Virus record (IMG/VR): IMGVR_UViG_3300032677_000031
Coordinates: 1 to 63,134 of that record
Origin: a virus
Lineage: Duplodnaviria > Caudoviricetes
Direction: 5' to 3' (one strand)
DNA length: 63,134 nt
Shown here: positions 1 through 63,134 of the stretch, piece by piece
Numbering within the stretch: position 1 is the stretch's first letter
How the letters are laid out: every line of letters starts with the position of its first letter
Translations under genes and position numbers: made by a program
Notes under the pieces: model-generated
What the model saw: only the letters and a program-made list of their open reading frames with translations
Databases searched by the model: none
What the model was told of the DNA's origin: nothing

Positions 1-127
1 TAACTTCAGATAACATACAAAAGAAACAATGGGTTTAAGTCAATGTTTACAGAGTAAATAATCATTAACGCCATTATTGCACTGGTCATTGATCATTAAA
101 CCCTACGTTATCAGACGTTAAATCAGC
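1..127. repeat. 127-bp terminal direct repeat (copy 1), most likely assembler overlap indicating a circular or circularly permuted complete genome
   Basis: Identical to 63008-63134; 127 is a common maximum assembly k-mer. Confidence 0.95.
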
Positions 128-637
128 GTTTTGGTCATTTTCGACCACCTCGCCGATAGGCTCCGGTTGCGTAAGTTCTCCCGCGGTCAGCGCCTCTTGC
201 GATACAGTCACAACCTCGGCGTCGATCACGTCTCGATGCGGCACGTTGAACAGCAGCTTTAAGTCGCTGGCCGAGTTGATCTGCAGCTTCTCAGGCGCGA
301 ACTCGCCGGCGATCTTGGCGTCAGCGAGAAGTGCGGCCAGTGCGTCAAACGTCTCGCCGGTCTCCTTGTTGTAAACTTTCGTCGGGATCATGCCCTCTGC
401 CATCTGCCTTAACACCTCGCGCTTTCTCGACAGGTCCATGACGGCGCGGAGCGCCACCTCTTCTCTGAACTCCTCGATCCGTTCCTTCACGCCAGCCGTC
501 TTGTTCAGTAGGTTATAGCCAGACTGGTTGGGGGCAGAGTTGTTCGGGTACAGGATGCGATAGGCTTCTGTGTACGTTTTGCCGGCTGCGATCAGATGAC
601 AAAATTTTTCGTGACGAGCGTTGGAGAGAGCGGGCAT
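86..637 (-). CDS. terS: terminase small subunit
   Basis: N-terminus MPALSNARHEKFCHLIAAGKTYTEAY resembles HTH-type TerS; lies just upstream of terL across the circular junction. Confidence 0.8.
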   Translation of the reverse strand: MPALSNARHEKFCHLIAAGKTYTEAYRILYPNNSAPNQSGYNLLNKTAGVKERIEEFREEVALRAVMDLSRKREVLRQMAEGMIPTKVYNKETGETFDALAALLADAKIAGEFAPEKLQINSASDLKLLFNVPHRDVIDAEVVTVSQEALTAGELTQPEPIGEVVENDQNADLTSDNVGFNDQ

Positions 638-679: not shown

Positions 680-709
680 CAAATAGTCTCTACAGAGACA
701 CATTGTCAA
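680..709 (-). promoter_or_regulatory. sigma70-like promoter for the terS/terL operon
   Basis: Minus strand TTGACA-18 nt-TATTTG; spacer holds palindrome GTCTCT-GT-AGAGAC. Confidence 0.5.
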
Positions 710-722
710 CCACAAATCTGTT

Positions 723-745
723 TTATTTAGAATCATTCTAAATAA
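723..745. promoter_or_regulatory. perfect 11-1-11 palindrome, Fur/PerR-family box-like
   Basis: TTATTTAGAAT-C-ATTCTAAATAA, 14 bp upstream of the terS -35. Confidence 0.45.
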
Positions 746-859
746 GAACTTCCGCTGAGAATTTTCTTATGACACACGAACCCCTTGCCAACTCATCAGC
801 AATACTGAATAGTTCACCACGTCGCCCCTGTCTCCGCAGTGCTTGGCGGTGTTCTCTGC

Positions 860-1624
860 AAAGCCCTCGGCCAGCATCCTGATGCGCTGGTCGGGGGTTT
901 TGTGTTTCTGTCAGAAACTTTGTACGTTTTTTCTGACAAAAGTTACCATTCAAATGTGGTACAACGCATCTACCTCCCATAGGTGGTAATGATCACGATC
1001 GAGCACATCCAATAAAAGTTCACGAGCGGAAACAATAACTATACCCGCTCGGTAACAATCGCCACCGAAACGACTCAAAGGTACCCGATCGGGGTTACAA
1101 AACCTTGCCCTTTGTGCAAAGATGTGTAGGGTTTGTAACGCCTGACCAGTCTACGGCCAATGGACGTAGAAGCGAGGGCTTTGCAAAATCGGGGGAGGCA
1201 GTGAGGGGTCTTGCGTACGCGGGCAAACCACCGTTGTGTTAGGCAAATGCCGAAGAGATAGCGACCTGACCCTCCCCCGACCTTTGTAGTAGTTCACAGA
1301 CATATCTCCGTTCATGGTAGCGTGAACGCTACACTTATCATGAACGATACATTCAGCAAGTGTATCGTGCATTTTAAGCGTATAGCCTAATCAAGCTCAC
1401 GATTGTTTAGATTATAATAAAAAGATGAAGCGTGGCTTGATTAACTCGCGCAGAAATAATCACCCATGGGGGGAATTTTAGTACAAACTCTAATCTCGAC
1501 TCCCAACCCAAAACCCCTTACCTTCTCACCCGTAGGAACCGACCCACCGACAAGTTACCACAACCAAGTCGGCTTCCCTACCCCACAGCCCTCAGCGATC
1601 AACGCTGGGGGCTGTCTGTTTTTT
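860..1624 (+). ncRNA. candidate large structured non-coding RNA
   Basis: At least nine stems (860-900, 909-938, 1023-1051, 1094-1139, 1150-1170, 1182-1288, 1309-1346, 1345-1367, 1388-1443); several have G-U pairs only on the + strand; no credible ORF; terminator at the end. Confidence 0.45.
1585..1624 (+). terminator. rho-independent terminator
   Basis: ACAGCCCTCAGCG-ATCAA-CGCTGGGGGCTGT followed by CTGTTTTTT. Confidence 0.7.
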
Positions 1625-1647
1625 GGGCGATTTCAAGGCCTTTTGGT

Positions 1648-1920
1648 AAGCGCAAATAGAAACAGATTGAAAAGTACCCCCTATTTGTATTTCTCTAAAA
1701 GAGATATCTTTCAATTATCTGTCCAAGAATAGTAATAATAATAAAACCTAGAAATATGATAAAAAAGGCCTTTATGGGGTACTATGGTACCCCAATAGCG
1801 ATTTACTGGTTGGTTTGTCAGGATAATTCAAATTGGCATTCTTGGACAGCTAATTGATACTTTCCTCTTTTACCGATTGTGCAAATAGGGGCACTTTTCT
1901 ATGTGTTCTAATTCGCGCTT
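1648..1920. repeat. large imperfect inverted repeat (83-bp arms) centred on a GGGGTAC-TATG-GTACCCC palindrome; candidate replication origin or packaging site
   Basis: Arms 1648-1730 and 1838-1920 are approximate reverse complements (e.g. TCAATTATCTGTCCAAGAAT vs ATTCTTGGACAGCTAATTGA); central palindrome 1776-1793; AT-rich. Confidence 0.8.
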
Positions 1921-3212: not shown

Positions 3213-3445
3213 ACCCCGACACCCCACGCCGACCACTACGGCCCGAAGAATTATTCGATGAAGCTTTGAAGCTCAAGGATCGTGCCGAGAAAGCCGAATC
3301 TGAAGTTAAGAGAATCAAAGAGCTGCTGGAAAAAGTCCTTTTTGAGCTAGAGAAAGTTCCATTCCAGAACCCAAAGCTGACCGCCTTCACAGCTCACAGA
3401 CTGGCCGATAGGTATCGCGAACAACTCAACCAACAAACCAAATGA
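3209..3445 (+). CDS. hypothetical coiled-coil protein
   Basis: Start moved to ATG 3209 (ATGA overlap); RAEKAESEVKRIKELLEK heptads. Confidence 0.7.
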   Translation: MNPDTPRRPLRPEELFDEALKLKDRAEKAESEVKRIKELLEKVLFELEKVPFQNPKLTAFTAHRLADRYREQLNQQTK

Positions 3446-4227
3446 ACCAACACACACCCGACAACGAGGTCGCAAGGCTCCGTGAGGCTCTTGAGCTTAT
3501 CGCTTCACCCATGCGGCCTGATGGAACATACAACAGAGACAGGAGAGCTTGCGAGCTACTTGCCAAGGAAGCACTCGCCACCGCGCCAGAGGAACCCAAA
3601 ACCTCTGCACATATTGATAAGTGCATAGGAAATGTAACGAAATTCACCCATGAGGGGAATCTCAATACAAAGTTCAAACAACTGCATGAGGTCGCTTCAA
3701 TCATAGTCGAATACATCGAAGATCCAGACCGCAGAAGTTACTACAGGTCGCAGATTCAGCAACTCACCCCAACGACAGAGGAAACTTCTGAAAAGGACAC
3801 ATCCACCGAAACCAGTCCTTCTCAAAAGGACACTGAATGGCGAGAGCTTGGCCCTGACGAGATGATCTGCGAGAACGACGAACTTTTTTACGAGCCTAAT
3901 GGAAGATCGTGGGAAAGGTGTGGAGAGACTTATTCGGGGCTGAAACCAAGAAAGTTAACGAACTACCGCTTCCGCACCCGCCGACCGTTGCCGAACACTT
4001 CGGAATCTCCGAAGAGTTCAAAGCAGGTGGAGATGCCGCTGGAAGATGAGCTAGACTACCTTACCCGCGAAGCATCAAGGGCATCCGACATTCACAACCA
4101 TGTTTTGATCGTGGACTGTCTCCGCTACCTCCGCGACGAGATCCAGAAGATCCACGAACGTCAGGAAGATTACCGCAAGGCACTCGACCTGTTCTGCAAG
4201 CAACTCGTAGACTTCAAAACCAAATGA
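3442..4227 (+). CDS. hypothetical protein
   Basis: 261-aa ORF with ATGA overlaps at both ends. Confidence 0.7.
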   Translation: MNQHTPDNEVARLREALELIASPMRPDGTYNRDRRACELLAKEALATAPEEPKTSAHIDKCIGNVTKFTHEGNLNTKFKQLHEVASIIVEYIEDPDRRSYYRSQIQQLTPTTEETSEKDTSTETSPSQKDTEWRELGPDEMICENDELFYEPNGRSWERCGETYSGLKPRKLTNYRFRTRRPLPNTSESPKSSKQVEMPLEDELDYLTREASRASDIHNHVLIVDCLRYLRDEIQKIHERQEDYRKALDLFCKQLVDFKTK

Positions 4228-11741: not shown

Positions 11742-11941
11742 GCACAAAACACACACCTGAATCACGAGCCAGCCGGCTCAAAGAAATAACCAAGGCCATG
11801 AAGTCAAAGGATCTCCACCCTACGGAGCGCCGCAAACTAGCCAGTGAGCTAGGGGGGCTGCGTGGGGCTGGATCCCTTGCACGCCGAATGGCAGCCATAA
11901 AAGGGAATCATGTACGACATGGAAAATCTTGGCTCGCTTAA
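11738..11941 (+). CDS. small basic protein
   Basis: 67 aa, ATGA overlap. Confidence 0.55.
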   Translation: MSTKHTPESRASRLKEITKAMKSKDLHPTERRKLASELGGLRGAGSLARRMAAIKGNHVRHGKSWLA

Positions 11942-12521
11942 CCGTTTTTGGCAGGGGGAGGTTAACCCCGATGGAAAAGTTTTTTGGGAATACCAACGGG
12001 GAAAACCTGTTTGGCTATCCCGTGAAAAATTTTTAGACCGGCAAGACAAAAAAAGAAAACGTGCTCAAGCTAGGTTTACCGTTAGGTATGCTACGGATCA
12101 GGATTATCGAGCTCGAACTTTAGCAAAAAATTTAGCCGGGTATTACCGAAACAGGGCTGAGCGGGTTATTAAGGCGTCTAGGTATTCAACACTTCGCCGC
12201 AAGCAAAACCCCCTAGCAAAGCTATCTCACCAAATCGGTTCCTTGATAAGAACTTCTTTTGGCCGCAAAGGGCTTAAGAAGCGCAGCAAAACTGAAACGC
12301 TCTTGGGTTGCTCGATTTTCGATTTCCGAAAACATATAGAAAATCAATTCCTCCCCGGGATGACGTGGGAAAACCGTGAAGAATGGCACGTTGATCACAT
12401 CATTCCGATAGCGTCGGCCCGTACAGATGAAGAGCTTATGAAATTAAATCATTACACCAACCTACGCCCTCTTTGGGCAATAGATAACCTAAAGAAAGGA
12501 GCTAAAGTAAACCTTGTATGA
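11910..12521 (+). CDS. HNH homing endonuclease
   Basis: LLGCS...GMTWEN..EWHVDHIIP...LNHYTNLRPLWAIDNLKKG. Confidence 0.85.
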   Translation: MYDMENLGSLNRFWQGEVNPDGKVFWEYQRGKPVWLSREKFLDRQDKKRKRAQARFTVRYATDQDYRARTLAKNLAGYYRNRAERVIKASRYSTLRRKQNPLAKLSHQIGSLIRTSFGRKGLKKRSKTETLLGCSIFDFRKHIENQFLPGMTWENREEWHVDHIIPIASARTDEELMKLNHYTNLRPLWAIDNLKKGAKVNLV

Positions 12522-12812: not shown

Positions 12813-14073
12813 CCTGAGCGACACCGGACTGGGGAAAACGTTCCATGCCCTCGCAGCTGTTAAGAGCTTTGACGTGCCCTTCGTGGTCATCTGCCGCGCT
12901 TCGTCGCGCCATAAATGGGAACAGGCGGTGCGGGACTTCGATCTTCACCAGAACTGCTTGGCCGTGGATTCGTGGCAGCGGTTTACCAATGGACGTAATC
13001 ACCGGGAGATCGTCACAAGACAGGCGTCCGGTCGCTCCACGTCTTATTCGTGGAATCCTGCAGCCCCTACGGTTATTATTTTTGACGAGGTGCAGGACGC
13101 TGGTGGACAGACGTCGCTCAACAGCCAGCTGCTCATAGGCGTCGGTAGATCCAGCAAGACCTACGCTATATGTCTCTCTGCCACGGTCGCCGACAGCCCT
13201 TTGAAGCTCAAGGCCCTTGGCTTTCTGTGCGGCCTCCACAACCTGAGCAACTTCTACGGCTGGGCAATGGACCACGGCTGCGGCAAATCTCCGTTCGGAT
13301 ACAATCAGCTCTACTTCAAGCCGAATCAAAGCAAGTGGGTTATCCCGAAGCTGCGCGATGCTCTGGAGCCGTATGGTGTGAGAGTCTGCCGGGATACGGT
13401 GAGTGAATACCTGCCTCAAGAGACCGTAGAGATCGAGCTCTGGGACGTGGGATCTCCCACCAAGTTTGTCCGGGACGCGCTGGATCGCCTCGAGCATACC
13501 CGAGACGAAGACTTGCTGAAGCACGAGGACGGAACGCCCGGGGCGGTCGAGCAGATGCGTGACCGGCAGGAGGCCGAGCTGCGTAGGCTGGTGCCGCTGG
13601 TAGCTGAGATCAAAGCCGCGGTCGAGGGCGGGATGTATTGCCCGGTGTTCCTGAATTTCACGGCTTCGGTAGACACACTCAAAATCATGCTGCAGTCGGA
13701 AAAGATTTCCGTTGGCGTGTTTGACGGACGTGACAAGTGGAAGCGCGAGGTGGACCGGGAAGACTTTATGAAGGGCGAGCTGCGAGTGTTGATCCTGCAG
13801 AGCGCTGCCGGCAGCGCCAGTATTGATTTGCATGACATTGTCGGCGGTCGTCCCCGGATGACGTTTATTTCTCCCCACTATCAATCGGAGGTAATGTTGC
13901 AAATGCTTGGACGAGCTGTTAGATTTGGTGCCAAAACCCCCGTGATCCAGAGAATCTGTTTTGCTGAAGGAACAATCGAAGAAAAAGTTTTTCGCGTTGT
14001 TGAGCAGAAAGCTAGGAACGTGAATGCTTTGAATGACGGGGTTTGGGATGCTGCTTTTAGAAATGCAAACTAA
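12703..14073 (+). CDS. SF2 (SNF2-like) DNA helicase
   Basis: LRPYQ, DTGLGKT, DEVQ, LSAT, QMLGRAVRFG, GTIEE. Confidence 0.88.
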   Translation: MTKILTTSSGIINLRPYQTEAAGKLADALQKHGVAVDLSDTGLGKTFHALAAVKSFDVPFVVICRASSRHKWEQAVRDFDLHQNCLAVDSWQRFTNGRNHREIVTRQASGRSTSYSWNPAAPTVIIFDEVQDAGGQTSLNSQLLIGVGRSSKTYAICLSATVADSPLKLKALGFLCGLHNLSNFYGWAMDHGCGKSPFGYNQLYFKPNQSKWVIPKLRDALEPYGVRVCRDTVSEYLPQETVEIELWDVGSPTKFVRDALDRLEHTRDEDLLKHEDGTPGAVEQMRDRQEAELRRLVPLVAEIKAAVEGGMYCPVFLNFTASVDTLKIMLQSEKISVGVFDGRDKWKREVDREDFMKGELRVLILQSAAGSASIDLHDIVGGRPRMTFISPHYQSEVMLQMLGRAVRFGAKTPVIQRICFAEGTIEEKVFRVVEQKARNVNALNDGVWDAAFRNAN

Positions 14074-14680
14074 GCGTTACCGACAGGGGGAAATTCGGGG
14101 AGACGGTATGGTTTTTTGGTCTTACAACGAAGACTGCAAAAATGGCGAGTATTGGATTACTCCCGAAAGGTATCAAACCCGAAAAGAAAAACGTAGGATA
14201 GCCCAACGACGTTGGGTATTACAAAACCCAAGCTCTAGTAAGGAGACCTTGAGGAGATATAAAAATAAATTTCCTGAGAAAGTTGCAGGATGGAGAAAAG
14301 CATGGTACGCAGCAAACCGAGATAAAATAAATGCTGCCCGGAGGGAACAGGTAGCCCTCCGAAAGAAAAAAGATCCTGTGTTTTCCTTGGCTTCAGGTTT
14401 TAGAAGTCGGGTAGGGTTGGAGTTCCGAAAGAAAAATTTTACCAAAAGGTCTTCAGCTTTTAGGATATTGGGGTGTACGTTTGAACAGTTACAAAAACAC
14501 CTAGAAGCCCAATTCCTTCCCGGCATGACGTGGAAAAACCGCGGAGAGTGGCACATTGACCACATTGTCCCACTTGCCACGGCTAAAACCGAGGAGGACG
14601 TTGTTCGGCTCAACCACTACACAAATCTTCGCCCGTTGTGGGCTATAGACAATTTGAAAAAAGGCGCTAAGTCCGCATAA
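14063..14680 (+). CDS. HNH homing endonuclease (paralogue of 11910..12521)
   Basis: ILGC...GMTWKNRGEWHIDHIVP...NHYTNLRPLWAIDNLKKG. Confidence 0.85.
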   Translation: MQTKRYRQGEIRGDGMVFWSYNEDCKNGEYWITPERYQTRKEKRRIAQRRWVLQNPSSSKETLRRYKNKFPEKVAGWRKAWYAANRDKINAARREQVALRKKKDPVFSLASGFRSRVGLEFRKKNFTKRSSAFRILGCTFEQLQKHLEAQFLPGMTWKNRGEWHIDHIVPLATAKTEEDVVRLNHYTNLRPLWAIDNLKKGAKSA

Positions 14681-22282: not shown

Positions 22283-22675
22283 TCAATCAGAAAGTGCTTC
22301 CTCTACCGCATCTCCGGATGCCTGTACCCAATCATTGTGATCATCCCAATCGTGGTTCAGGGCCTCAGCAACTATCCTTTCTACCTGAGTGGCAATGAGA
22401 TGCTGCTTGTGGTAAGGGGCATCTGGATGGTCGCCGGGCTCCTCGAGGCTTGGGTTGTCAATATCCCACTGGGATACGGCCTCCTCCTCGATGCCGGCCT
22501 CTTTGCAGAGAAAGGCTTCGACCATCTCGTGCAGGGCAACTAGGAAGGCACTGCGGTCGTTCTTTTCATGCTCCGCCACCGTCACGTGGAGATGGCCGTC
22601 CTCGTTGAACAGCCAATCTCCACAGGTGGGGTACCGCAAGCACTCAGGTGCTTGGGTCTTGAGGGTGATTTTCAT
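22283..22675 (-). CDS. putative metal-binding protein (HExxE...H)
   Basis: RYPTCGDW...LVALHEMVEAFLC...EPGD.PDAPYHKQH. Confidence 0.65.
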   Translation of the reverse strand: MKITLKTQAPECLRYPTCGDWLFNEDGHLHVTVAEHEKNDRSAFLVALHEMVEAFLCKEAGIEEEAVSQWDIDNPSLEEPGDHPDAPYHKQHLIATQVERIVAEALNHDWDDHNDWVQASGDAVEEALSD

Positions 22676-23337
22676 AGAGGCTGGAGTTCGTGTGGGAGTT
22701 TGTCGGATTTTGAACGGTTTATCCGCATGGGTATTATCTGCATATTGGTATGGATATGATACCCTCCCCTAGAGATAGGTACAATGTGATCTACTTCATG
22801 GGGGATATTTAAGCAATCGGAAACCCTGCGACTACAATCGTATATCGTAGTTATGATGTTTTCCTGACCCCGATGAAGCATTAAAATGGCGTTTCTTTTT
22901 CTGCTTCGGCGTTTAGCAGCAAGCTTGTTGGTTTGGTCAGGGTTAGCCAACCTCCATTTTGTTTTTATTGCTCGACTTTTTTCCCGATTGTTTTCTTGCC
23001 ACTTTCGAGAATACTCAATCCTCCTAGCGCTGCACCTAGTGTCGGAAGCTTTTTTCCGTTTTCTGTGCTCTTCAGGATTCTCTAATCTGAATTGATTTGC
23101 CCTTTTTTTAGCTGCTTCTAATTGATTACTGAAAACCTTGGGGGATGCCCAAATTTCTCGCATGACGTATTCCCCCTTACGCTTTCGGTATTGCTTTACA
23201 TAAGTAGAAAACAAAAAACCATCTGAGATACGAATGTCGCCACGAAGATATTTTCTTACTGTACCGTCAGGAAAAAGTTCCCCCCGTTTTTGACGGGGGT
23301 TCCCTTTGCTCGGTAGGTAGTCTAACTCTTCCGCCAC
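22672..23337 (-). CDS. HNH homing endonuclease
   Basis: HEVDHIVPISRGGYHIHTNMQIIP...N.SK; AT-rich insert. Confidence 0.85.
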   Translation of the reverse strand: MAEELDYLPSKGNPRQKRGELFPDGTVRKYLRGDIRISDGFLFSTYVKQYRKRKGEYVMREIWASPKVFSNQLEAAKKRANQFRLENPEEHRKRKKASDTRCSARRIEYSRKWQENNREKSRAIKTKWRLANPDQTNKLAAKRRSRKRNAILMLHRGQENIITTIYDCSRRVSDCLNIPHEVDHIVPISRGGYHIHTNMQIIPMRINRSKSDKLPHELQPL

Positions 23338-24854: not shown

Positions 24855-27800
24855 TTAGCGATATGTGACGACCGGCGGTAGATCAGCTAGGGCTTTCTTT
24901 AGGTTGTCCAGCTCAGGGAGAGCCCTCTGGAGAGGCCATGCAAGGCTGGTAGACTTCTGGATGCCTTCGTGCGTGGTCAGACCCTTGACATGGTAAATGT
25001 CCTTCAAAAATCCGATCGGCTTTCCGGCAACGCTCCAAGGATAAGAATAGTGGGTGTTGTCCTGAGTTGGACGGGTGCCTTTTTTCACCTCGAACAAGCC
25101 GACGACCGTGTCGTTTGGCAGGTCAAAGATCCAATCGGTGGATAGGTCGCGGGCGATATCGTGGGGCAAAAGACCCATTGCTGCCAGCTCTTTGGAGCTG
25201 ATCGGGAGCTTGCTTCGCTGCATTTGACCGAGGAATGGCTCCATGTCACCGAAGTTAAGCTTCTTGCCGCGGACAGCGTCTGCGAATTTGCTGAAAGAAG
25301 TGATTTGCTTCCATTTAGCCCGGACGTTTTCGTCCATGTCTTTCTTTGTGCTATTTACAATGGCACTGGACATCTCTTTGATCTGGGCATCCAGCTGTTT
25401 CTGGGTGACATGCTTGGTGTCGCGGGCTTGCTCCATAGCCTCCACGTATCCGAGCTGACCGGTGGGGTTCTTTAGGTGATTGATCGGGCTCTGCAGGGTG
25501 ACGGCGACCAGTACGCTGTCGGTGCCATGCTTTTCAGCCAGCTTGTTGACGCGGTTGACAAAGGTAGAGGCAGGTCCATCGTTGGTAAATGCCCAGACGC
25601 CATTGTTGAGCAAGGTCATGTGCTCAGGGCCGCCCTGTGCCTCTACGCTCAGCTTTTTCTTGTCACCTGTCGGCCCTACATACTTGGTTCCTACGCCCAT
25701 GCGGTCGGCGGGCAAGGCAAACATCGGTCTGTCGGCATAATCCTCGAGATTTATTCGCTGTGAGGCCGGCAGGAAGTTGACAAGAATCTTAGGCTTAGCG
25801 ACAAAGTCGGCCTCCGGGTTGGTGACAACAACATGTCCATCCAGCCTGACCCGTGGCTGCTCTTCCTTGGCCTTCGTAGGCACAATCGTCGAGTCGATCA
25901 CGTAGGGGAACTCGTGGCCGTTCTCGTCCTCGAGCATGACGGCGTTCATGCCGTGGAGATCCTTGATCTTGATACCGAGATCGTCGTTGACGTATTCCAT
26001 CGGCAGGGTGCGGCGGAAGCCAATTTCTTTCATCATTGCATCGGTCTCAGGAACGCTCAGGCCACGCTTGATCTTGAGGAACGGCTGCGACACCTCGGAG
26101 TAAAGTCCGGCAGGCCACTTGTTGCCATCAATGTCTACGCCACCGCTGCCCTCTACGTTCTGTAGGCCGCGGAAGGTCAGCGCAGCTTTAGGGAACAGCG
26201 TGTTGTGGATCTGCAGCGAGTCAAAATAGTCCGCCCACGTCGGGTAGTAAGGGTTCGGGGTGCGCTTTACGACGTCAGGCCCGGGAGGGAACGAAACTTG
26301 GTGCTCGCCACCGGCTTCAGAGCCATCGAGCTGCCATTGCTTGTGGAATGGCTCTGGATCCCGCATGAGCCCATTCTCTTCCGCATGCCTGCGGAGAGCG
26401 GTCTCTTCTACCTCTTTCCGAGAAGCGCTTCCCGAGGCTCCCTGTACACCTTCTGCACCTGAGCCTTGCGCTCCTCTGGCGACAGACGCGAACCCGCCGA
26501 GAAGTCGATTCCGGTCGTCTTGGCTTTGGCCTCCAGCTTGGATGCCAGCTCTTTCAGCTTGGGTGTCACTTTCAGTTTGTTGTTCATCAGTGGATAAAGA
26601 TTCGTTGGTTTGGGTTCCCTCGTCAACGCCTTTTTCTGCTGGCAGATAATTCACCCCAAAATACTTTGAGGTCTTGGGCGTCTTGAAGATCTCGCGACCC
26701 TGCTGTACTTCGGTGAGCTTGGTTTTCTTGAACATTGCCACGGCATCGAAGGCGCCGTTGTATGACTTGGGGCTGAAGTATCCGGCATAGCCAGCGTCCT
26801 CGATCATGTTGTCCATCTTCTCGCGGTTCAACATGCCGGCGACACCAAGAGGATCCTTTTCGAGGTCGTAGATGCTATTTCCGTCAACCTTGGCCACGTA
26901 CGGGGTACGACCGCGCATGATTCCCTCATAATTGCGGTCGTTGTTCAGGTAGAAGTAGGTCTTGGGGGCACCGCGGAGATCGCCCGGAGTGGCAGCGCCT
27001 TTGCCGAATTTGCTAGGATCTGCCGACTTGAGGCCGTGGGCACCGAAATGCACGAGATCGAGCTCTCCACCGACGCTGCCTTCTTTTTCCTTGGAAGGGT
27101 GCTGTACGGTAAGCTTTTTGGCTGGTAAGAAACTTGGTCCCGACTTAGTCCCGGCTTGAGCCTCTTTCTCGGCTGCGTCAATGAACTCCTGAGGAAGTGC
27201 TATGTTTTTCTGCTCAGCAAACGGACGTTCGGTGACAGGCACGTAACCTTTCTCGCCCTTCTTGGCGATGTTGCCCTCTTCGTCACGCAGGTGCGGACCA
27301 AAGTTGACCCAGCTGTTCTGCGCCAGAGTTTCTCCGGCCAGCGCCGGCTTGGCGGCATCTGAGAACATGCGGCTGTGCTCAAGATAGGCATTGAACTCAC
27401 CCCTCGGCCCAAACTCGTACCCATTTGCCCCGTGACCCACAATGTCGTGCACAACGCGGAACACGTCGTTGACCGGTACGTTCTCTGCACCGTTGAAATT
27501 GACCCCTGAGTCCTGCAGCATCGGGTTCTCGGCACGCATCTTGTCCGTTATGCCAGATTCTCCGTACCCTTCCTTGGTCTGGAAGTAATACAGGTGCTTA
27601 TTGTCCCGCACGTCCTTCATCATCTCAGCCGAGTTGGCGTATGGCTGACCTTCGCCAGTCCAAGGAGTGGCCGTATAGCCGGCCTTCTCGAATGCCTTCC
27701 ACTGATCGACAACTTCATTTGCAAGCGCCGTGTAAGCCTTCTTGACCTCAGGATGACTCGGATCGTTCTTGGCTTCCTCGTAATGATCGGCAATACGCTT

Positions 27801-30800
27801 GGCAAGCTCTTCGTTTACGGGGACAGCCTGACCATGCGGGCGGTATTCCATGCCGGCATTTTTTACGTAATCTTCGGAAATACGTTGGACGTCTTGGTTA
27901 GCGTTCTTTGCAGGCTGGGCATAGGGGGTGCGCTGATCGGGGGCGACATAGGTAGCCTTGACTGCATTCAGAGCCTTTAGAATCGGGTTATTTTCCTCAT
28001 TAGGCTCCTCGGTAGCTTTGCCTTCCCTTGCAGGCAAGAAGTTCATCAGCTGCTTGCCGTAGTCTACCGGAAGCGGCGGAGCTGTGCTCTCAAGCATGTC
28101 AGCAATCGAATCTGCACGCACCGACATGATCGTACGATCTGCGTATTTGCCCTTAGGATCGCCTTTCTTGCGCGGTATGACGGTACGATCAGGATTGGCG
28201 CTGCGAGCGTCATTATTTGTAAGATTAAGAAAATCATTGAAGATATTTTTCTTCTCCAGAGCAACTTTAGGGTCTGGATCTAGCCCAGTCTCGCCCGGCT
28301 TACCGGTCAAGTGATTCTGCAGATACTTTCCGGCAAACTCGCGGAAGAAAGCCTCACGATTACCGCCCCAAGGTGCCAGACGCCCGGGCAGACGATCCGC
28401 CCACAGGTCAAGCTTGTTGAGCAGACGAGTGACCGAGACCGTAGTGATCAAGAAGTTGCCATCCTTTGAGAAGTGCATGCCAATCGGCACGAGATCGTAG
28501 ATTTTAGGGCTAAAGGATACTGCCTTGCCGCGGTCATCAACACGGGCAGCGTAATCAATCAGCATGCGATTACCATCGCCGCGAGCCAGCAAATCATTGA
28601 ACCGGAGGATTGATTCCTTGACCTTAGCCGGCACAATTTGCTCGGGAAGGGCTCGTATAGCTGCAATCTGAGCAGGCGTAAAGGTACCGCGGTAGGACAG
28701 ACGATCTTCAGATACAGGACGGAACCCCTCGGGTTCCCCTTGATAGGCAGTATCCAGAGCATCACGAATCAAATCGGCACGAGTCTTAACAAGCTGCTTG
28801 ATTTCCTTAGGGGAAAGCATCTGCGGCGTTTCGCCGTCCGGACCCATGACAATTTCCCGGGAAACCTTGAGCGATCCGCCCTCAGGAACTTGCACCCCTG
28901 CCGGTGCTTCTCCGTATCCGCTGCGCTGATTTAGCGTACCGTTTTCGTTGCCCCAGAGACCTTCCTTTGCCATCGGATCGGTCAATACCGTTTGACCGAC
29001 TACGTTTCCGTTGGCATCAAATACGGTTGCGCGGAACTCGGTCTTAAATAGACCTGAGTCACGGCCATAGCGCTCACGGAGCGCCTTGTTACCAATCAGC
29101 TTGGCTTTGGTAATCATCGGTGCCACAGACTCCCCGGCAGTAGGAGTTGAAATCATTCCGTTCAGCTTCTGCAGCTGGCGGACGGCATTACGGTGAGCGG
29201 AAAGTACCTCAGGGGTAAATTGGGCACCGGTTGCGACCGAAGGGGTTGCGGCAAAGGGGTCACGACCGCCGTTGCCCATGTACTTATCTACGGCACGTGC
29301 GACAATGCTGTTCTGCCGGTTCAAAGTTGCCCAATCAAGTAGGTGCTGCTGCACAGAATCAAGGCTCTTGAGATTGTGTCCCGTGAACGAAGAGGCATTG
29401 AGATCGGCACGTACCTCTTTCTTCATGTAGTCAACGATAGCCTTTTCGTTAGGGCGATCGTTCACCGTATCCCAGAGCTGATTGCCCTTAGCCCACTGTT
29501 CTTTAGCGGCCTTGTCGCCTTCACCGGACAGATATTCGTTAAAGAACCGATCAACGAGATCCTTGTTGCTGAACAGTCCTTTGGTGCTTTGATAAACTTT
29601 GCCATCGAGACCTCGGTCTTCGAAGTCAAACAGAAGTTTGTCGGTCTGAGCATTGAGCTCACGGAACTCAGGAATGTCATCCAGTGCGTGACCGAACTCG
29701 TGCCGAAGAGCATCGGCAAAGGATACGTTTTGAGCCTTTGCAAAGTCAGCAACCTTGTCAATGTTGACAACCGCGGTTGGCTTCATCGGATCAAAGGTCA
29801 CACGTGTCATCGGAGCCTGCAGCGCTGTTGGAACAGACTCACCCGGCACAAACTCACGACCCCCCGTAGGGAAATACAATCCAGCTCCAGTCTCAGCAAT
29901 CTGCTGCAGCTCTGCAGGAGTCTTGTCGGGATTCTGGGCAACCATCCGGTCAACGATCTGAGGAGTGGAAAGGATTTCGACTCCGATATTCTTCTGACCT
30001 GCGCGGAACGGACCATTAGTCGTTTCGTGCATGGTATTGATCATCTTTCCAATTTCCCGAGCATACGCCTGACGGGTGGCAACGTCGGCATTTGCAAGCT
30101 CTGGGTGCGTGCGGACAACATTTGTCCAATCCTGCAGCTGGCGGATGTTTTCCTGCGTCTCCGGAGAAAGCTGCTGCATCGTCTTGTAAATGTCGGCATC
30201 GGTCTGGCGTATTTCACGCTGATGTGCTGAGGGATCTTGACGAAGAGCCCCGTGCAAAGCTTTAGCAAACACACCAAAGCCAATACCGCTTTTCAAGCTA
30301 TCGGCCAGCTCATCGGCATCCTGAGAATTGAGGGCTCCGGTTGCTACGCCCAAGGCTCCCATGTTTACGCCCTCGCGACCGTAATCTTTAATCAGGTTAC
30401 CCAGTTTGTCGTAGATTTTACCGTTCTTAAACAGGGTCTGGGTCAGCTGAGAGGCTTCCGGATTAGCTCCGGCAAGTTCAAACATTCCCTTGCGACCGCC
30501 GGCAGATACGGCTTTTGCTTCGGCAAGATCAGCCAGCGTACGTGGGATCTGCGTTACCGCTTCGAGTCCCTTGAGCTTACCCAGAGCGCCGAGAGCGGTA
30601 TGTTCTACGATTGCTCCCAGCAAAGCACCGCGCAGAGGGTGTTCTTTGTCTTCACCGTATCCGATAACGGCACCGGGCAAATCTTTCAAAGCTGCCGTAC
30701 CAACAGCTGCCAATATGGGTCGATTTTGTGCAAATTCAGCTGCTGCCTGCTGCAATCCTTCGGTCGTATCCGCAAACTTTTTAGCCGCCGACCCTAGCAA

Positions 30801-31886
30801 TCCAATTTTGCTTGCTTTCTCTACGCGAGCCGCGGTGGCTGCCTGTTCGAGGGCTTGCTGGGCAGCCTTTGACATGCTGAGTCCGCGTACAAGACCCGGA
30901 ATGCCGGCACCTGCACCAATTACATTACCCGCAAATCCCATCTCGCCAAAACCAAGACCCGCGGGGCTTAGCCAGCTTCCTGCGGTCTTGATGTCTTCGT
31001 CGATGGGTGCCTGAGACTTAGCGACATCCTGAGCAACTTCCTGTGCCCCTTTGTAGGCGGTCTCGTCGTCAATCCCCGGGGCATTCAGCTTAATCAGGCT
31101 CTTCAATCCCTCCTGCACGTAGGGATGAAACAACATTTTGGAATACACCGTAGGGCTGGTGCGGTTAAGCAAAGCATTTGCGGTATCAACCGACTCTCTT
31201 GCTTGGTACCGGCGGAAAGAATCCTCTGGGGTAGAAAACCCATATTTTTCGCTCAGCTGATCCGTGTACTTGGTTCCCCCTAGCCCTATTTTAGCAGCGG
31301 TAGTGGCAAGTTCCCCCGGCAGCTCCATCACGGGGGCATTGAAAGACTTCAGGGCATTGAGGGTATTTACGGCGTGCGCCTTGATGTCTTCCTCAGACGC
31401 ATCCTCTGCAGGCTCTTCAAACATTTGACCTGCAAACTTTCCGGCACCACGTAACAGGCGCTTTGTTTCATCCCAGAGACTGCCGCCCGATTGCTCTTTC
31501 TTAATCAACCCTGCACGCTCGGCATCAAATACTTCGCGCTGTTTGTCGGCAGGGATTGGGTAATCAGGACGAATCTTTTTGAAGTCGTGCCACTCTTGGG
31601 GAGACCAAGTGCTCATCATCCCCAGATAATCTTTGTCGAAATTCTCCGGCTCTAATCCTTGCGTTGCGGTGGCAAACTGATCGACTGCGCTGACAGGCTT
31701 TTCTTGTTCCTGAGGCTTTGGGGTCAGCGAATCAAAAAATGCAGACGGATCCTCGGTCACCGAAGGTGCCTTGGTTTCCTCTTTCTTTTCCTCTGGCTGT
31801 TCGACTTTTTTCTCGGGAGCTTTAGGCTCCGGAGCTTTTGTCAAATTGTCGAAAAAGGAATTGGGATCATCCGTAATTGAATCCAT
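24855..31886 (-). CDS. giant internal virion/ejection protein, polyvalent (metallopeptidase, HDxxGH domain, ART-like and kinase-like domains)
   Basis: 2343 aa; last of the ejection cluster; HEFGH, FRVVHDIVGH, LVHFG...TYFY...AGYAGY, GGEHQV...VVK...DLHGMN...VID. Confidence 0.72.
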   Translation of the reverse strand: MDSITDDPNSFFDNLTKAPEPKAPEKKVEQPEEKKEETKAPSVTEDPSAFFDSLTPKPQEQEKPVSAVDQFATATQGLEPENFDKDYLGMMSTWSPQEWHDFKKIRPDYPIPADKQREVFDAERAGLIKKEQSGGSLWDETKRLLRGAGKFAGQMFEEPAEDASEEDIKAHAVNTLNALKSFNAPVMELPGELATTAAKIGLGGTKYTDQLSEKYGFSTPEDSFRRYQARESVDTANALLNRTSPTVYSKMLFHPYVQEGLKSLIKLNAPGIDDETAYKGAQEVAQDVAKSQAPIDEDIKTAGSWLSPAGLGFGEMGFAGNVIGAGAGIPGLVRGLSMSKAAQQALEQAATAARVEKASKIGLLGSAAKKFADTTEGLQQAAAEFAQNRPILAAVGTAALKDLPGAVIGYGEDKEHPLRGALLGAIVEHTALGALGKLKGLEAVTQIPRTLADLAEAKAVSAGGRKGMFELAGANPEASQLTQTLFKNGKIYDKLGNLIKDYGREGVNMGALGVATGALNSQDADELADSLKSGIGFGVFAKALHGALRQDPSAHQREIRQTDADIYKTMQQLSPETQENIRQLQDWTNVVRTHPELANADVATRQAYAREIGKMINTMHETTNGPFRAGQKNIGVEILSTPQIVDRMVAQNPDKTPAELQQIAETGAGLYFPTGGREFVPGESVPTALQAPMTRVTFDPMKPTAVVNIDKVADFAKAQNVSFADALRHEFGHALDDIPEFRELNAQTDKLLFDFEDRGLDGKVYQSTKGLFSNKDLVDRFFNEYLSGEGDKAAKEQWAKGNQLWDTVNDRPNEKAIVDYMKKEVRADLNASSFTGHNLKSLDSVQQHLLDWATLNRQNSIVARAVDKYMGNGGRDPFAATPSVATGAQFTPEVLSAHRNAVRQLQKLNGMISTPTAGESVAPMITKAKLIGNKALRERYGRDSGLFKTEFRATVFDANGNVVGQTVLTDPMAKEGLWGNENGTLNQRSGYGEAPAGVQVPEGGSLKVSREIVMGPDGETPQMLSPKEIKQLVKTRADLIRDALDTAYQGEPEGFRPVSEDRLSYRGTFTPAQIAAIRALPEQIVPAKVKESILRFNDLLARGDGNRMLIDYAARVDDRGKAVSFSPKIYDLVPIGMHFSKDGNFLITTVSVTRLLNKLDLWADRLPGRLAPWGGNREAFFREFAGKYLQNHLTGKPGETGLDPDPKVALEKKNIFNDFLNLTNNDARSANPDRTVIPRKKGDPKGKYADRTIMSVRADSIADMLESTAPPLPVDYGKQLMNFLPAREGKATEEPNEENNPILKALNAVKATYVAPDQRTPYAQPAKNANQDVQRISEDYVKNAGMEYRPHGQAVPVNEELAKRIADHYEEAKNDPSHPEVKKAYTALANEVVDQWKAFEKAGYTATPWTGEGQPYANSAEMMKDVRDNKHLYYFQTKEGYGESGITDKMRAENPMLQDSGVNFNGAENVPVNDVFRVVHDIVGHGANGYEFGPRGEFNAYLEHSRMFSDAAKPALAGETLAQNSWVNFGPHLRDEEGNIAKKGEKGYVPVTERPFAEQKNIALPQEFIDAAEKEAQAGTKSGPSFLPAKKLTVQHPSKEKEGSVGGELDLVHFGAHGLKSADPSKFGKGAATPGDLRGAPKTYFYLNNDRNYEGIMRGRTPYVAKVDGNSIYDLEKDPLGVAGMLNREKMDNMIEDAGYAGYFSPKSYNGAFDAVAMFKKTKLTEVQQGREIFKTPKTSKYFGVNYLPAEKGVDEGTQTNESLSTDEQQTESDTQAERAGIQAGGQSQDDRNRLLGGFASVARGAQGSGAEGVQGASGSASRKEVEETALRRHAEENGLMRDPEPFHKQWQLDGSEAGGEHQVSFPPGPDVVKRTPNPYYPTWADYFDSLQIHNTLFPKAALTFRGLQNVEGSGGVDIDGNKWPAGLYSEVSQPFLKIKRGLSVPETDAMMKEIGFRRTLPMEYVNDDLGIKIKDLHGMNAVMLEDENGHEFPYVIDSTIVPTKAKEEQPRVRLDGHVVVTNPEADFVAKPKILVNFLPASQRINLEDYADRPMFALPADRMGVGTKYVGPTGDKKKLSVEAQGGPEHMTLLNNGVWAFTNDGPASTFVNRVNKLAEKHGTDSVLVAVTLQSPINHLKNPTGQLGYVEAMEQARDTKHVTQKQLDAQIKEMSSAIVNSTKKDMDENVRAKWKQITSFSKFADAVRGKKLNFGDMEPFLGQMQRSKLPISSKELAAMGLLPHDIARDLSTDWIFDLPNDTVVGLFEVKKGTRPTQDNTHYSYPWSVAGKPIGFLKDIYHVKGLTTHEGIQKSTSLAWPLQRALPELDNLKKALADLPPVVTYR

Positions 31887-60315: not shown

Positions 60316-60392
60316 TGGCTGCCGCGCTAGGACTTGAACCTAGAAAAGCCGCTTTCAAAGAGCGGTGAGTCTACCAATTCCTCCACACGGCA
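60316..60392 (-). tRNA. tRNA-Gln(TTG)
   Basis: Acceptor TGCCGTG/CGCGGCA, D-loop AATTGGTA, anticodon arm CCGCT-CTTTGAA-AGCGG, T-loop TTCAAGT, encoded CCA. Confidence 0.9.
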
Positions 60393-60400: not shown

Positions 60401-61024
60401 TCATTTCGGCAAAGCAAAATCTTTTTTGTTGTACTTCCGGCAATTCCAATATGCCGGAAGGATTTGAAGGTTCGTGTGATGGTGTTTGCCGTTTTTAGAA
60501 AGGGGAACGATATGGTCTACCTCCCAAGGATTCCCTAAACAACTTTCAAGCCGTCTGCAACATTCGGTGAGGCAGGTTTCAATCTTTATATCATGATTTG
60601 GGTCGATGGATTCTTTACGAAGGGATCTTCGATAACGGTTTTGTGACAGGACGACTGAATAATTCTTTCTTTTCCATGCCACAAGATTTTTCCTGACCTT
60701 CTCGGGATTTTTACTTTGCCAACGCTTAACCGATTGCAAGCTTTGGTTCTTTAGCTCTTCGTATTTTTCTGGAGATACCCACCATTCTCCATCCTTGCAG
60801 TTGGGCGCATACCTCCAAAAAATTTTTCCGCTTACTGGGTTGACTTCTCCCACTTTTCTTGGGGTTCGGTCACTAAACAAAATGCGTCGCCGTTGGGTTG
60901 TCTCTTTTAGCTTTTGCTTTTTGGCTAAAAATTTATCAGGCGTGAGCCACAGTTCTTTACCGTGGATGACCGCCCAAAAGATTTTCCCTGTTAGGGGGTC
61001 TATTGTTCCGTTTTTTAGTTTCAT
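60401..61024 (-). CDS. HNH homing endonuclease
   Basis: WEVDHIVPLSKNGKHHHTNLQILP..WN..K; two copies of the N-terminal module. Confidence 0.85.
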   Translation of the reverse strand: MKLKNGTIDPLTGKIFWAVIHGKELWLTPDKFLAKKQKLKETTQRRRILFSDRTPRKVGEVNPVSGKIFWRYAPNCKDGEWWVSPEKYEELKNQSLQSVKRWQSKNPEKVRKNLVAWKRKNYSVVLSQNRYRRSLRKESIDPNHDIKIETCLTECCRRLESCLGNPWEVDHIVPLSKNGKHHHTNLQILPAYWNCRKYNKKDFALPK

Positions 61025-62892
61025 CAATCTTGACTAAAATCTATAAACCCTGCTTTGTCAATTAAGGTTTGGGAAAACTGTTTACCTTGAAACTCCCGAG
61101 TTGGTTTGGGGGTCGTCATCGTCGGTACGCTTCCGCTGCGCTGGCGGAACAAGAACACGAGTAAGCTCAGTGAGTCAAGTGCATCCGGTGACGGCTGGCG
61201 TGTCCGCTTGCAATACTCGGCCTTGGCCTCGACGCGTACCAGCCCCCGACCCTTCTGCTTGTACCGGCGACCCGTCGCCTGCTTGACCAGCTCCTCGTGC
61301 CGGAAGCCCGGTGAGATCTTCAGGTAGCCGAACTCAATGAACTTGCCGAGTCCGAAGATCAGCTCGGTCACAACCCCGTTGTACATCTCGTTTGCCTTCT
61401 GCGTGTCGTCGCCCAGCACGTGCGTGTCGGTGGCGGCCTCCGAGTAGTTGACGCCCATGACCTCGGGGCCAAAGATGTTCTTCAGGTTGTCGTGCACGCC
61501 TGACCCGTTGCCGGTTCGATCCACGCATACCCAGCCCGCTCCGATCTTCATCTGGTTGCAGAACCGCATGATCGCCTGCGTCTGCTTTACGGTGTCGCCC
61601 TTCGGGAATGGCATCTGGCTGTCCACTTGCACGACGACCCGCGGCTTGTCGAATGCTTGGAACTTGCCGCTCAGTGGCGTCCATCCGTCGCTCAGACCGA
61701 ATCTTCCGTACGTGCACATGAGCTGGTCGTTGCCCTCGAGCGCCAAGTCAAAGCTGGCCAGCGGCACGACGTTGCCGACGAAGCGTACGATGCCGACCGC
61801 GTTGTCCATCATGGCCGGCGTTATGATCGCCATCGACACACCCTCCTGCGGGAACCATCCGCGTGCCATCGTGAAATACTCGCCGGTACGCCCGCGGCTC
61901 TCGTAGTTCATGAAGCCCTCGTAGGTCTGGAGACCGGGGTACACGACCCTCTTCTCCATCACGTTCTCCGATCGCGCCGCGTCCAGTCGCAGGACGTGCC
62001 ATCCGTCTCGGCTACGCCACTCGTAGTCCTCCTCGCAGTCGATCGAGCCCCAGCCCCGCTTCGGTTCGCACAGCCGGCCAAAGTGGCTGGTGCGGTCTTT
62101 CGGGTTGGATGCCGCGAAGACCTTGATGTGACCGGCGTTCTTAGTGTCTGCGGTTGAAAGCAAATTGTAACATCCTTCCCATACGCCGGCTGGGATTTCC
62201 TCCGCCTCGTCGAGGATGACGAAGTTCCGGGTCAACTTGCCGAATCGGTTGTGCGCTTTGCCATGACGAGGTGACGGGTGAAATCCGCGTAGCACGCCGA
62301 AACCTGACTCACCCTTGGGGATCGCCACAAGGTGGATGCCCTGCTTGCTGTCGCTATTCGCTTGGATGCTCTTCACCAGATCTTCTGAGTTATCCATCGG
62401 AGGTTTGACCAGTGCCGTGCGGTGGAAGTTCTTGATCGACGCAAAGATGTTGCGCTCCGCGTGCTCGGCCGTGAGCGAGATGACCTTGATCGACGTGTTG
62501 CACGGATCCTGCAGCCAGCTCAGGTAGAAAAAAGCTGCCGCACCAAACGACTTACCCATAGCGCCGGCTCCTTGCACCAGTAACTTGTCATGCTGAAACA
62601 AGCATCTCCACACCTCACGGGAGCTTTCTGGTCTCCAGTTGTAGGTTTCCCCTCCCCACAGGATCGTTGCAGCCGCCTCAAACTGGTCTCCCTGCAGGAG
62701 GGTGTCCACATACCCCCAAACCACGTTCCGAGCGATTTCTGGCCTAATCTCGAGCGATTGCGGGGGGTTTGCGGTGAGGTGCGTGAGGATCCAGTGGGCA
62801 GCGTACAGGATGCCCCGCTCCTCGTCCCGGTCGGCTTCGGCTCGAATTTTTTCTGCGATAGCAACAAGTTTTGCGACGGCCGGCTTTAGCAT
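61024..62892 (-). CDS. terL: terminase large subunit
   Basis: GAGAMGKS Walker A, ILDEAE Walker B, ASNP, FDLA, VDRTGNGSG, SPDALD nuclease motifs. Confidence 0.9.
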   Translation of the reverse strand: MLKPAVAKLVAIAEKIRAEADRDEERGILYAAHWILTHLTANPPQSLEIRPEIARNVVWGYVDTLLQGDQFEAAATILWGGETYNWRPESSREVWRCLFQHDKLLVQGAGAMGKSFGAAAFFYLSWLQDPCNTSIKVISLTAEHAERNIFASIKNFHRTALVKPPMDNSEDLVKSIQANSDSKQGIHLVAIPKGESGFGVLRGFHPSPRHGKAHNRFGKLTRNFVILDEAEEIPAGVWEGCYNLLSTADTKNAGHIKVFAASNPKDRTSHFGRLCEPKRGWGSIDCEEDYEWRSRDGWHVLRLDAARSENVMEKRVVYPGLQTYEGFMNYESRGRTGEYFTMARGWFPQEGVSMAIITPAMMDNAVGIVRFVGNVVPLASFDLALEGNDQLMCTYGRFGLSDGWTPLSGKFQAFDKPRVVVQVDSQMPFPKGDTVKQTQAIMRFCNQMKIGAGWVCVDRTGNGSGVHDNLKNIFGPEVMGVNYSEAATDTHVLGDDTQKANEMYNGVVTELIFGLGKFIEFGYLKISPGFRHEELVKQATGRRYKQKGRGLVRVEAKAEYCKRTRQPSPDALDSLSLLVFLFRQRSGSVPTMTTPKPTREFQGKQFSQTLIDKAGFIDFSQD

Positions 62893-63023
62893 AACTTACA
62901 CCCTTTTCTAAGGTTGATTGCGGCGGGCAACACCTGAAGGTTGGAACGTTTCACATACCCCCGGAAGCGCCAGCCGTCTTCGCGGGTCTCGCCGATTTTT
63001 CTTTTGGTAACTTCAGATAACAT
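62886..63023 (-). pseudogene. 45-aa internally deleted HNH endonuclease remnant (not in ORF track)
   Basis: MLSEVTKRKIGETREDGWRFRGYVKR fused in frame to SNLQVLPAAINLRKGCKLC; catalytic DH core missing. Confidence 0.75.
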
Positions 63024-63134
63024 ACAAAAGAAACAATGGGTTTAAGTCAATGTTTACAGAGTAAATAATCATTAACGCCATTATTGCACTGGTCATTGAT
63101 CATTAAACCCTACGTTATCAGACGTTAAATCAGC
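63008..63134. repeat. 127-bp terminal direct repeat (copy 2)
   Basis: Identical to 1-127. Confidence 0.95.

Follow-up and report, generated by a model that had tools for sequence, protein, structure and literature searches.

To our knowledge, GOLLD and ROOL, whose structures have been solved, have no known function and are among the least understood of the large RNAs. The tRNA cluster of phage T4 encodes stable small RNAs of unknown function that are co-transcribed with the tRNAs. Excerpts of two papers (PMC12286853, PMC5737381) describe GOLLD and ROOL as RNAs of phages and prophages that often lie near tRNA islands, and GOLLD as conserved towards its 3' end and variable towards its 5' end, sometimes with tRNAs within. 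Other elements of this kind are the PeSLs of T4-type phages, which an excerpt of PMC4122927 presents as small composite terminator/promoter motifs that mediate shuffling, and the 8,495 candidate structured RNA motifs (29-151 nt) of a survey of intergenic regions in IMG/VR, many of which, according to an excerpt of PMC10690425, contain Rho-independent terminators or are tRNA-like. Here we analyse positions 860-1624 of the virus record IMGVR_UViG_3300032677_000031 (Duplodnaviria; Caudoviricetes), a complete record of 63,134 bp that we call the window. This gene-free interval had originally been predicted to hold one large structured non-coding RNA of about 750 nt, which might serve as a decoy, in anti-defence or as a scaffold.

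Our results suggest another layout. We think it probable that the interval holds two independent plus-strand non-coding transcription units with regulatory DNA between them, the second unit being tRNA-linked and modular. In the first, a promoter at 785-813 would drive a small RNA of about 85 nt (about 820-907), with the stem at 860-900 as its intrinsic terminator. In the second, a sigma-70-type promoter at 1105-1132 would direct an untranslated RNA of about 480 nt, running from about 1139 to a terminator at 1585-1615 and made up of a chain of separately folding modules (B, D, E and F) and a C-rich tail. These modules would be gained, lost, replaced and moved independently in related phages, with F as the constant core and the 5' modules as optional parts, and the locus would be a tRNA-less version of a tRNA-linked RNA unit of phages. 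The host RNA polymerase would transcribe both units, and tRNA-processing nucleases would cut the precursor where a tRNA is embedded. Module F would act in trans, as a stable RNA binding a host or phage factor tied to tRNA or translation; its invariant loop and an invariant complementary segment could form either a pseudoknot or contacts between RNA copies.

A single RNA over 860-1624 is thus not what we find, since 860-900 ends a separate RNA, 1094-1139 is a promoter, and no promoter was found for 909-1093. Even the larger unit (about 1139-1620) is no single co-conserved fold: relatives carry its modules apart from one another and in other genomic slots, so that it forms a mosaic. The original prediction had allowed for two RNAs, should 860-907 itself be a terminator, and it is this version that the promoter and covariation evidence favours. 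For annotation, the lesson is that long gaps without genes in phage genomes may resolve into several small units instead of one giant RNA.

By context, GOLLD and ROOL are the closest analogues that we can propose for the second unit. It resembles them in being phage-encoded and in lying near tRNA genes in the relatives (within about 650 nt of module F in 10 of 15 distinct contexts), though not in the window itself, and it resembles GOLLD in having a conserved module on its 3' side, variable modules on its 5' side and, in one relative, a tRNA in the 5' part. Unlike GOLLD and ROOL, which measure about 580 to over 800 nt, the second unit is predicted to reach about 480 nt at most and less than 200 nt in minimal relatives; it consists of separable hairpin modules without a match to any Rfam model; and in place of the large (>500 nt) multi-junction fold with covariation-supported pseudoknots expected of such RNAs, it shows one candidate pseudoknot without covariation. 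GOLLD and ROOL form multimers, whereas the second unit is known here from sequence alone. The T4 small RNAs are similar in being non-coding RNAs that are transcribed together with phage tRNAs and presumably released by tRNA-processing enzymes, a release that we infer here. They differ in that among our loci only the relative L005 has a tRNA inside the unit, and the likeness is one of description, not of sequence. The IMG/VR survey drew on the same data source and covers the size range of both the 85-nt RNA and module F, and some of the modules may already be among its motifs. A search of the published literature turned up no description of the locus, which is not proof of absence. The locus would be a smaller and more tractable relative, by context, of the two large RNAs, with a defined (if predicted) promoter and terminator and a conserved core of about 85 nt. 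The natural swapping of its 5' modules, tRNA included, would provide a ready-made deletion series for the role of this core.

Relatives were collected by protein searches in viral contigs, which gave 11 loci with terS and 14 with terL (labelled L004, L005 and so on). Further copies came from exact and gapped pattern scans, and matches without similar flanks were dropped as chance. All members of the family are uncultured viral contigs and their contexts are phylogenetically related, so that counts across them are not independent. GenBank phages contained no match to the region, to module F or to the TerL protein. BLAST of 640-1956 against the 11 terS loci revealed mosaic conservation: 640-907 is conserved in seven loci and partially in one more, and 1095-1140, 1186-1333 and 1420-1545 are each conserved in subsets only. 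In L013 the block 1095-1285 is displaced to the other side of terS.

That the roughly 750 nt carry no credible open reading frame (ORF) proved correct. A PHROG search at E<=0.1 gave no family for any of the five longest small ORFs, and in-frame stops in relatives interrupt four of them (738-980 and 1151-1372 on the minus strand, 843-989 and 1105-1242 on the plus strand); the match of the fifth (1466-1732, plus strand) is confined in relatives to its first 24 residues. As neither frame nor length is conserved among the relatives, a short protein-coding gene or leader peptide was rejected. ARAGORN and the Rfam tRNA clan revealed no tRNA or tmRNA in 638-1956. With Rfam 15 at the gathering threshold, the single match in the whole window is a tRNA at 60319-60392; four weak matches to 600-2000 at E<=10 all lie far under threshold, and the relatives gave tRNAs only. 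The region therefore matches no Rfam family, as had been supposed; the families compared include GOLLD, ROOL, tmRNA, RNase P RNA, 6S RNA, riboswitches and small ribozymes.

Folding was compared with dinucleotide shuffles on both strands (20 shuffles per strand for the whole interval, 200 for each segment). The interval as a whole beats its shuffles, and more so on the plus strand (z -8.22) than on the minus strand (z -3.78). The plus strand was counted as favoured in 7 of the 8 segments (Table 1), with 1291-1402 as the named exception; segment 1403-1480 folds at chance level on both strands. Most of the stems predicted earlier are present in the minimum-free-energy folds, which hold stems at 858-903, 909-938, 1023-1051, 1150-1170, 1309-1328, 1330-1382 and 1585-1615 and a multibranch structure at 1184-1286; the one at 1094-1139 is better read as a promoter with an inverted repeat. 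A stem at 1388-1443 is in the full-length fold, and by eye it is retained in one relative only (L018). The asymmetry of G-U pairs that had pointed to a plus-strand RNA is real for stem 858-903, with five U-G or G-U pairs in the alignment, and an intrinsic terminator indeed closes the region at 1585-1615, with a T-run on the plus strand only. We read the region as structured on the plus strand because the folding z-scores favour that strand and the T-runs of the terminators occur on it alone.

The best-supported element of the interval is the small RNA of the first unit, which we denote sRNA-A. A scan of viral contigs with a pattern for its terminator gave 16 stretches, 14 of them distinct, and six unrelated terminators were removed before covariation was counted. 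In the alignment of 8 distinct sequences, 93.8% of the cells in the 30 pairs are paired, compared with 37-49% when the partners are slid; 7 pairs have changed on both sides, and the covariation score is 0.289 versus 0.172 for shuffled alignments (0 of 500 shuffles as high). The promoter at 785-813 was flagged by the consensus scan (9/12). By eye, its hexamers persist in 8 distinct relatives, with the variants TTGCAC and TTGCAA and, at -10, TAGTGT, TAGCGT, TACAAC, TACCTT and TACGAT. We read the element as a promoter because these hexamers persist while the spacer sequence changes, and the predicted 5' end of sRNA-A is placed from the -10 position. The covariation and the conserved promoter of its own lead us to take the stem predicted at 860-900 as the terminator of a separate small RNA; the promoter/terminator scan flags a terminator at 877-896. 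With its own promoter, a covarying structure, a GC stem with U-tract and no ORF, sRNA-A has the features of an intrinsic-terminator small RNA.

Upstream of sRNA-A lies a probable promoter for terS, facing the other way. Its TGTCAA and CAAATAG blocks are conserved, by eye, in an alignment of nine relatives, and the promoter scan did not flag it. Between these two divergent promoters sits a 23-bp palindrome, retained by eye in L004, L005, L010 and L013, which we consider a candidate operator, presumably bound by a protein. The 85-nt RNA beside terS is a well-supported new phage small RNA that adjoins a candidate operator. Target prediction for sRNA-A, module F and the C-rich tail against the start regions of 111 ORFs gave loop-ridden duplexes only, in which terS ranked 109, 53 and 103 of 111, respectively.

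No promoter was found for the DNA that follows sRNA-A (909-1093), and the hairpins at 909-991 may be reached by read-through. Those at 944-961 and 967-991 recur in L005, L040 and L043, in the last of which they start a few bases after a tRNA; two of their 11 pairs are compensatory in a weak sample of 4 sequences. The stretch from 995 to 1093 is probably regulatory DNA. It overlaps a segment, 988-1059, that matches DNA upstream of the same promoter in L018, L020, L043 and L049 and also matches L014/L047, and similar boxes are seen by eye upstream of the promoter in L068. Genome-wide, the box motif has 6 matches, a number reached by 13 of 100 shuffles, so that it is not significantly enriched.

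The second unit begins with the element at 1094-1139, which had been predicted as an RNA stem. Conserved hexamers around a variable spacer identify it as a promoter instead. In L018 and L020 the homologous site reads TTGACA-16-TAGGAT and is the top promoter of each region in the scan (10/12). Elsewhere the hexamers are TTGCAC/TAGGGT (L013), TTGCCC/TAGTCT (L009) and TTGACA/TAGGTT (L043/L049), the spacer differing between lineages while the hexamers hold; in L018 the flanking inverted repeat is partly lost and the hexamers are kept. The hexamers, spacing and conservation at 1105-1132 are those of a sigma-70-type promoter, whose activity is predicted, and the second unit would start at about 1139. 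The motif has one exact copy in the window, and its 11 other matches carry 2-3 mismatches, where 6.5 are expected by chance. On the same strand and upstream of F, it was found within 5 mismatches in 6 of 14 contexts by fuzzy matching, and by eye in L005, L014 and L068 also.

The 5' modules of the second unit show their mobility in several ways. In 4 sequences of module B, 2 of 12 pairs have changed on both sides (A-U to G-C and C-G to U-A). Module D, which is followed by ACC and a variable base, is known from 6 distinct copies that carry 3 unrelated apical inserts, all folding onto the same invariant base, and in L013 and L020 it occupies another genomic slot. A gapped pattern for D gave 9 metagenome and 2 genome stretches, 4 of the metagenome ones being copies of the window or of known relatives; the matches in L021, L023/L028/L031, L024, L029 and L030 lacked a flanking stem and flank similarity and were rejected as chance. 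The GC-rich terminal stem and ACC of module D recall a tRNA, and by eye it has no T-arm. Module E was found in L009, L018, L020, L045, L053 and L055. Its comparative support is weak: an alignment of 7 sequences gives compensatory changes in 2 of 9 consensus pairs, with an unfavourable covariation term (+1.08 kcal/mol). An extra insert, absent from the window, lies between B and D in L005, L009, L013 and L018. In L014 and L043/L049, F comes almost immediately after the promoter, and L013 has the promoter and module D with F absent. Four relatives (L013, L020, L040 and L054) carry the unit in the slot that separates terL from the following late gene; in the window this slot holds an HNH endonuclease gene and a tRNA-Gln.

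Module F is the part that persists. Its 13 distinct sequences align without gaps, with 36 of 87 columns invariant, and a covariance model detects it in 20 of 50 sources, with scores of at least 65.9 bits, while the remaining terS and terL relatives gave no match. A gapped pattern adds L068 and L069, for a total of 15 distinct phage contexts. It is present once in each of five near-complete relatives (49-69 kb), and it occurs also in phages with almost no protein similarity to the window; against such more distant contexts, BLAST matches the window only at F, plus the promoter, 988-1059 or module E in some. Across 15 sequences the pairs that we propose are formed in 87% of cells, versus 35-43% with slid partners, and 2 of 16 pairs have changed on both sides, one of them from G-C to A-U in four sequences. 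The loop at 1438-1443 (UGAUUA) is complementary to 1457-1462 (UAAUCA), a candidate pseudoknot. The structure of F is compatible with these data and not proven by them; covariation, strong in the small RNA, is weak in module F.

Four other readings of F were tried and rejected. A closing helix around it (UGUUUA with UAAACA) failed to exceed its shuffles in each of 14 contexts. A peptide from the conserved ATG in F would range from 4 to 95 aa and is unrelated after 4 residues, and an upstream frame of 14 codons is by eye a start followed by a stop in L045 and L053. F is not a repeated promoter of a phage polymerase either, as the window has one full copy and a 2-mismatch match inside a gene and the relatives have single copies; no RNA polymerase family was found among the 20 large ORFs scanned in the window. 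A weak match to the covariance model (24.7 bits, E 0.021) lies at 3606-3664, inside the gene at 3442-4227, where 3626-3639, a 2-mismatch copy of the -10/start motif of the promoter, is directly followed by a 2-mismatch copy of the 3' end of F (3641-3657). This match may be chance or a relic. In L045, L053 and L054 another conserved and, by eye, apparently structured non-coding block lies about 60-170 nt downstream of F; the window lacks this block, and Rfam has no family to match it.

The link with tRNAs is seen most directly in L005, where ARAGORN finds a tRNA-Trp(CCA) immediately after the shared promoter, in the place that module B takes in the window. In 14 of 20 loci ARAGORN calls a tRNA no more than 631 nt from F, and Rfam adds L055; L068/L069 have one also. 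All tRNAs upstream of F share its strand (9 of 9 such loci, and L068/L069). The only tRNA of the window lies about 4.2 kb from the locus around the circle. The tRNA of L005 (5478-5554, minus strand) scores 28.7 bits with the tRNA-Sec model of Rfam and less with the general tRNA model, below threshold, and may be an atypical tRNA. A conserved ORF of about 74 aa with an RGRP-type ending stands just before the tRNA-plus-RNA region in five distant contexts (L043, L045, L053, L055 and L068); the motif presumably resembles an AT-hook, and tblastn finds no homologue of the ORF in the window (best E 0.25).

It is also possible, with a small probability in our estimate, that the promoter and F together represent a novel type of RNA of tRNA islands in uncultured phages, acting as a decoy or as a particle made of RNA only. 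In such a particle the invariant UUGAUUA and UAAUCA would pair between molecules to give multimers, as in GOLLD and ROOL, and the 5' modules would be cargo or specificity domains that could bait tRNA-directed host defence or processing enzymes. In L005 module D has a hairpin resembling an anticodon loop, which together with the tRNA of that relative illustrates what an exchangeable 5' domain may look like.

Several findings weigh against two units with a tRNA-linked core. The copy of the second promoter in the window is weak (8/12, below the cut-off of the scan, which did not flag it), and L044 and L054 carry the motif downstream of F. The transcript ends of both units are predictions from the sequence. 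The family is small: D is known from 6 distinct copies and F from 15, all of them in uncultured contigs, and the kinship of the F contexts makes the tRNA counts non-independent; five of the 15 contexts (the window, L009, L014, L018 and L020) have no tRNA near F. The base of module D never varies, which makes covariation there impossible and its pairing a modelled one, and module E folds equally well on the minus strand (Table 1, segment 1291-1402). For F itself, the covariation score is weak and is reached by 36 of 500 shuffles, nested folding is no better than chance (z +0.12), and its conservation could reflect a constraint on DNA or on sequence. We regard the larger unit as a plausible new tRNA-linked modular phage RNA, with a core structure that is compatible with the data and undemonstrated.

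A rival explanation is at the level of DNA, in which the locus is only a regulatory mosaic of portable promoter, operator and terminator cassettes whose hairpins have no RNA function beyond termination. We consider this unlikely, though not negligibly so. The modules are shuffled between slots and phages, the second promoter sits in an inverted repeat, the alternative slot by terL holds in the window the endonuclease gene and tRNA mentioned above, the palindromic boxes and the 23-bp palindrome look like protein sites, and F shows more conservation of sequence than of demonstrable structure. PeSLs, in the excerpt of PMC4122927, are composite terminator/promoter shuffling motifs of this sort, combining a promoter with a stem-loop at sites of insertion or replacement between related phages, and the second promoter is similar to them in form. 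However, such cassettes are repeated and PeSLs flank variable genes, whereas here the promoter motif and F are single-copy in each genome and the flanks are non-coding modules. Compensatory changes in the small RNA, in module B and in the hairpins at 944-991 point to pairing in RNA, the folding is strand-asymmetric, and the orientation of F is fixed relative to upstream tRNAs.

Another explanation is that the second unit is a cis-acting leader of the early operon. RNA from the promoter at 1105-1132 would then control, by attenuation or processive antitermination, whether polymerase stops at 1585-1615 or continues through 1957-2985 and the genes after it, a logic comparable to that of the put RNAs of phage HK022. 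The order of elements would fit: a promoter, a structured RNA, a C-rich and G-poor stretch resembling a Rho loading site, a strong terminator and then early genes on the same strand. In the window the loop segment of F can pair, by eye, with 1389-1397 or with 1457-1462, giving alternative folds, and in L013 and L020 a late gene of the same orientation follows the unit directly. Yet some 340 nt of AT-rich DNA with promoter-like motifs of its own separate the terminator from the first early gene, the unit in L043/L049 appears to converge on a minus-strand ORF just downstream of F, other non-coding modules follow F by eye in L045 and L053, and the alternative partner 1389-1397 was recognised by eye in the window and in L018 alone. 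We thus hold a leader to be decidedly improbable. As for the tail and terminator themselves, similar C-rich tails follow F by eye in L005, L009 and L014 and are absent from more distant phages, and GC hairpins with weaker T-runs stand at the same relative place in those three relatives.

Table 1. Predicted elements of the locus, followed by the folding of its segments relative to shuffled sequences (positions in the window)
Feature	Position	Strand	Description	Folding z, plus	Folding z, minus
Probable terS promoter	709..680	-	-35 TTGACA (709..704), 18-nt spacer, -10-like TATTTG (685..680)		
23-bp palindrome	723..745		11-nt arms around central C; self reverse-complement match 96%		
Small-RNA promoter	785..813	+	-35 TTGCCA (785-790), 17 nt, -10 AATAGT (808-813)		
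Small RNA of about 85 nt (sRNA-A)	820..907	+	5' hairpin 819-852, terminator stem 858-903, U-tract to 907		
Conserved hairpins	909..991	+	Inverted repeat 909-938, hairpins 944-961 and 967-991		
Upstream region of second promoter	995..1093		Inverted repeat 1023-1051, box TACCCGCTCGGT (1042-1053), palindromic box TACCCGATCGGG (1082-1093)		
Sigma-70-type promoter in inverted repeat	1094..1139	+	-35 TTGCCC (1105-1110), 16 nt, -10 TAGGGT (1127-1132)		
Module B	1140..1179	+	Stem-loop, inner hairpin 1150-1170	-2.08	
Module D	1184..1286	+	Invariant, irregular helix at the base, about 15 bp, including a 10-bp stem (1189-1198/1271-1280); replaceable apical domain		
Module E	1291..1394	+	Hairpins 1309-1328 and 1330-1382		
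Module F	1395..1480	+	Proposed stem 1430-1436 with 1445-1451; CCC/GGG hairpin 1463-1465 with 1470-1472		
C-rich tail	1481..1584	+	45 C and 11 G of 104 nt, largely unstructured		
Intrinsic terminator	1585..1624	+	Stem 1585-1615 of 13 pairs (9 G-C), 5-nt loop, T-run		
Folding segment	815-907			-3.63	-1.79
Folding segment	908-1000			-1.87	-1.04
Folding segment	1001-1093			-1.91	-0.89
Folding segment	1139-1183			-2.08	-1.53
Folding segment	1184-1290			-3.49	-2.48
Folding segment	1291-1402			-3.41	-3.69
Folding segment	1403-1480			+0.12	-0.34
Folding segment	1481-1624			-4.78	-2.30

The gene layout bears out the view that the locus lies at a divergence point of two transcription directions, which is the region 638-1956. 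It is bounded on one side by terS (86-637, minus strand, phrog_51), which joins terL (61024-62892, phrog_2) across the ends of the record, and on the other by the first plus-strand gene (1957-2985). Genes on the minus strand extend from about 63 kb down to 22 kb, and those on the plus strand from 1957 to about 22 kb; in a family scan the latter include helicase, exonuclease, DNA polymerase and primase families. By eye, no Shine-Dalgarno sequence is recognisable before the start codons of terS, 1957-2985 and 3442-4227, a possible clue to the host.

Such a position could also be that of a replication origin, with the two plus-strand promoters firing into the AT-rich, repeat-bearing DNA of 1625-1956 to activate or prime DNA synthesis and with the hairpins and boxes as initiator sites. 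Directly downstream of the locus this segment has 35-37% G+C and a 67% self-inverted repeat at 1648-1920, the box motifs are repeated, and polymerase, helicase and primase are all encoded by the phage itself. An origin here is nonetheless very unlikely in our view: the cumulative GC skew has its extreme near 32 kb and none at the RNA locus, the enrichment of the boxes is not significant, L013, L020, L040 and L054 have the modules in another slot, and no iteron array was found. In the same segment we noted by eye promoter-like CAAATAG motifs facing both ways, and the same pair follows the terminator hairpins in L005, L009 and L014; the leftward copy could give rise to antisense transcription through the RNA locus.

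In the slot by terL, the ORF at 60401-61027 beside tRNA-Gln matches HNH endonuclease and endonuclease VII families. By tblastn it matches the same stretches of the relatives as do the ORFs at 22672-23337, 14033-14680 and 11910-12521, which suggests, from these shared matches, several homing-endonuclease-like copies in the window. The minus strand also carries an ORF of 2,343 aa (24855-31886) whose sole family match, over residues 1385-1527, is to a PHROG of unknown function. The first and last 127 bases of the record are identical; this exact terminal repeat (1-127 and 63008-63134) takes in the 3' end of terS, and the record may be a circularly closed assembly, in which case the repeat would not mark physical ends.

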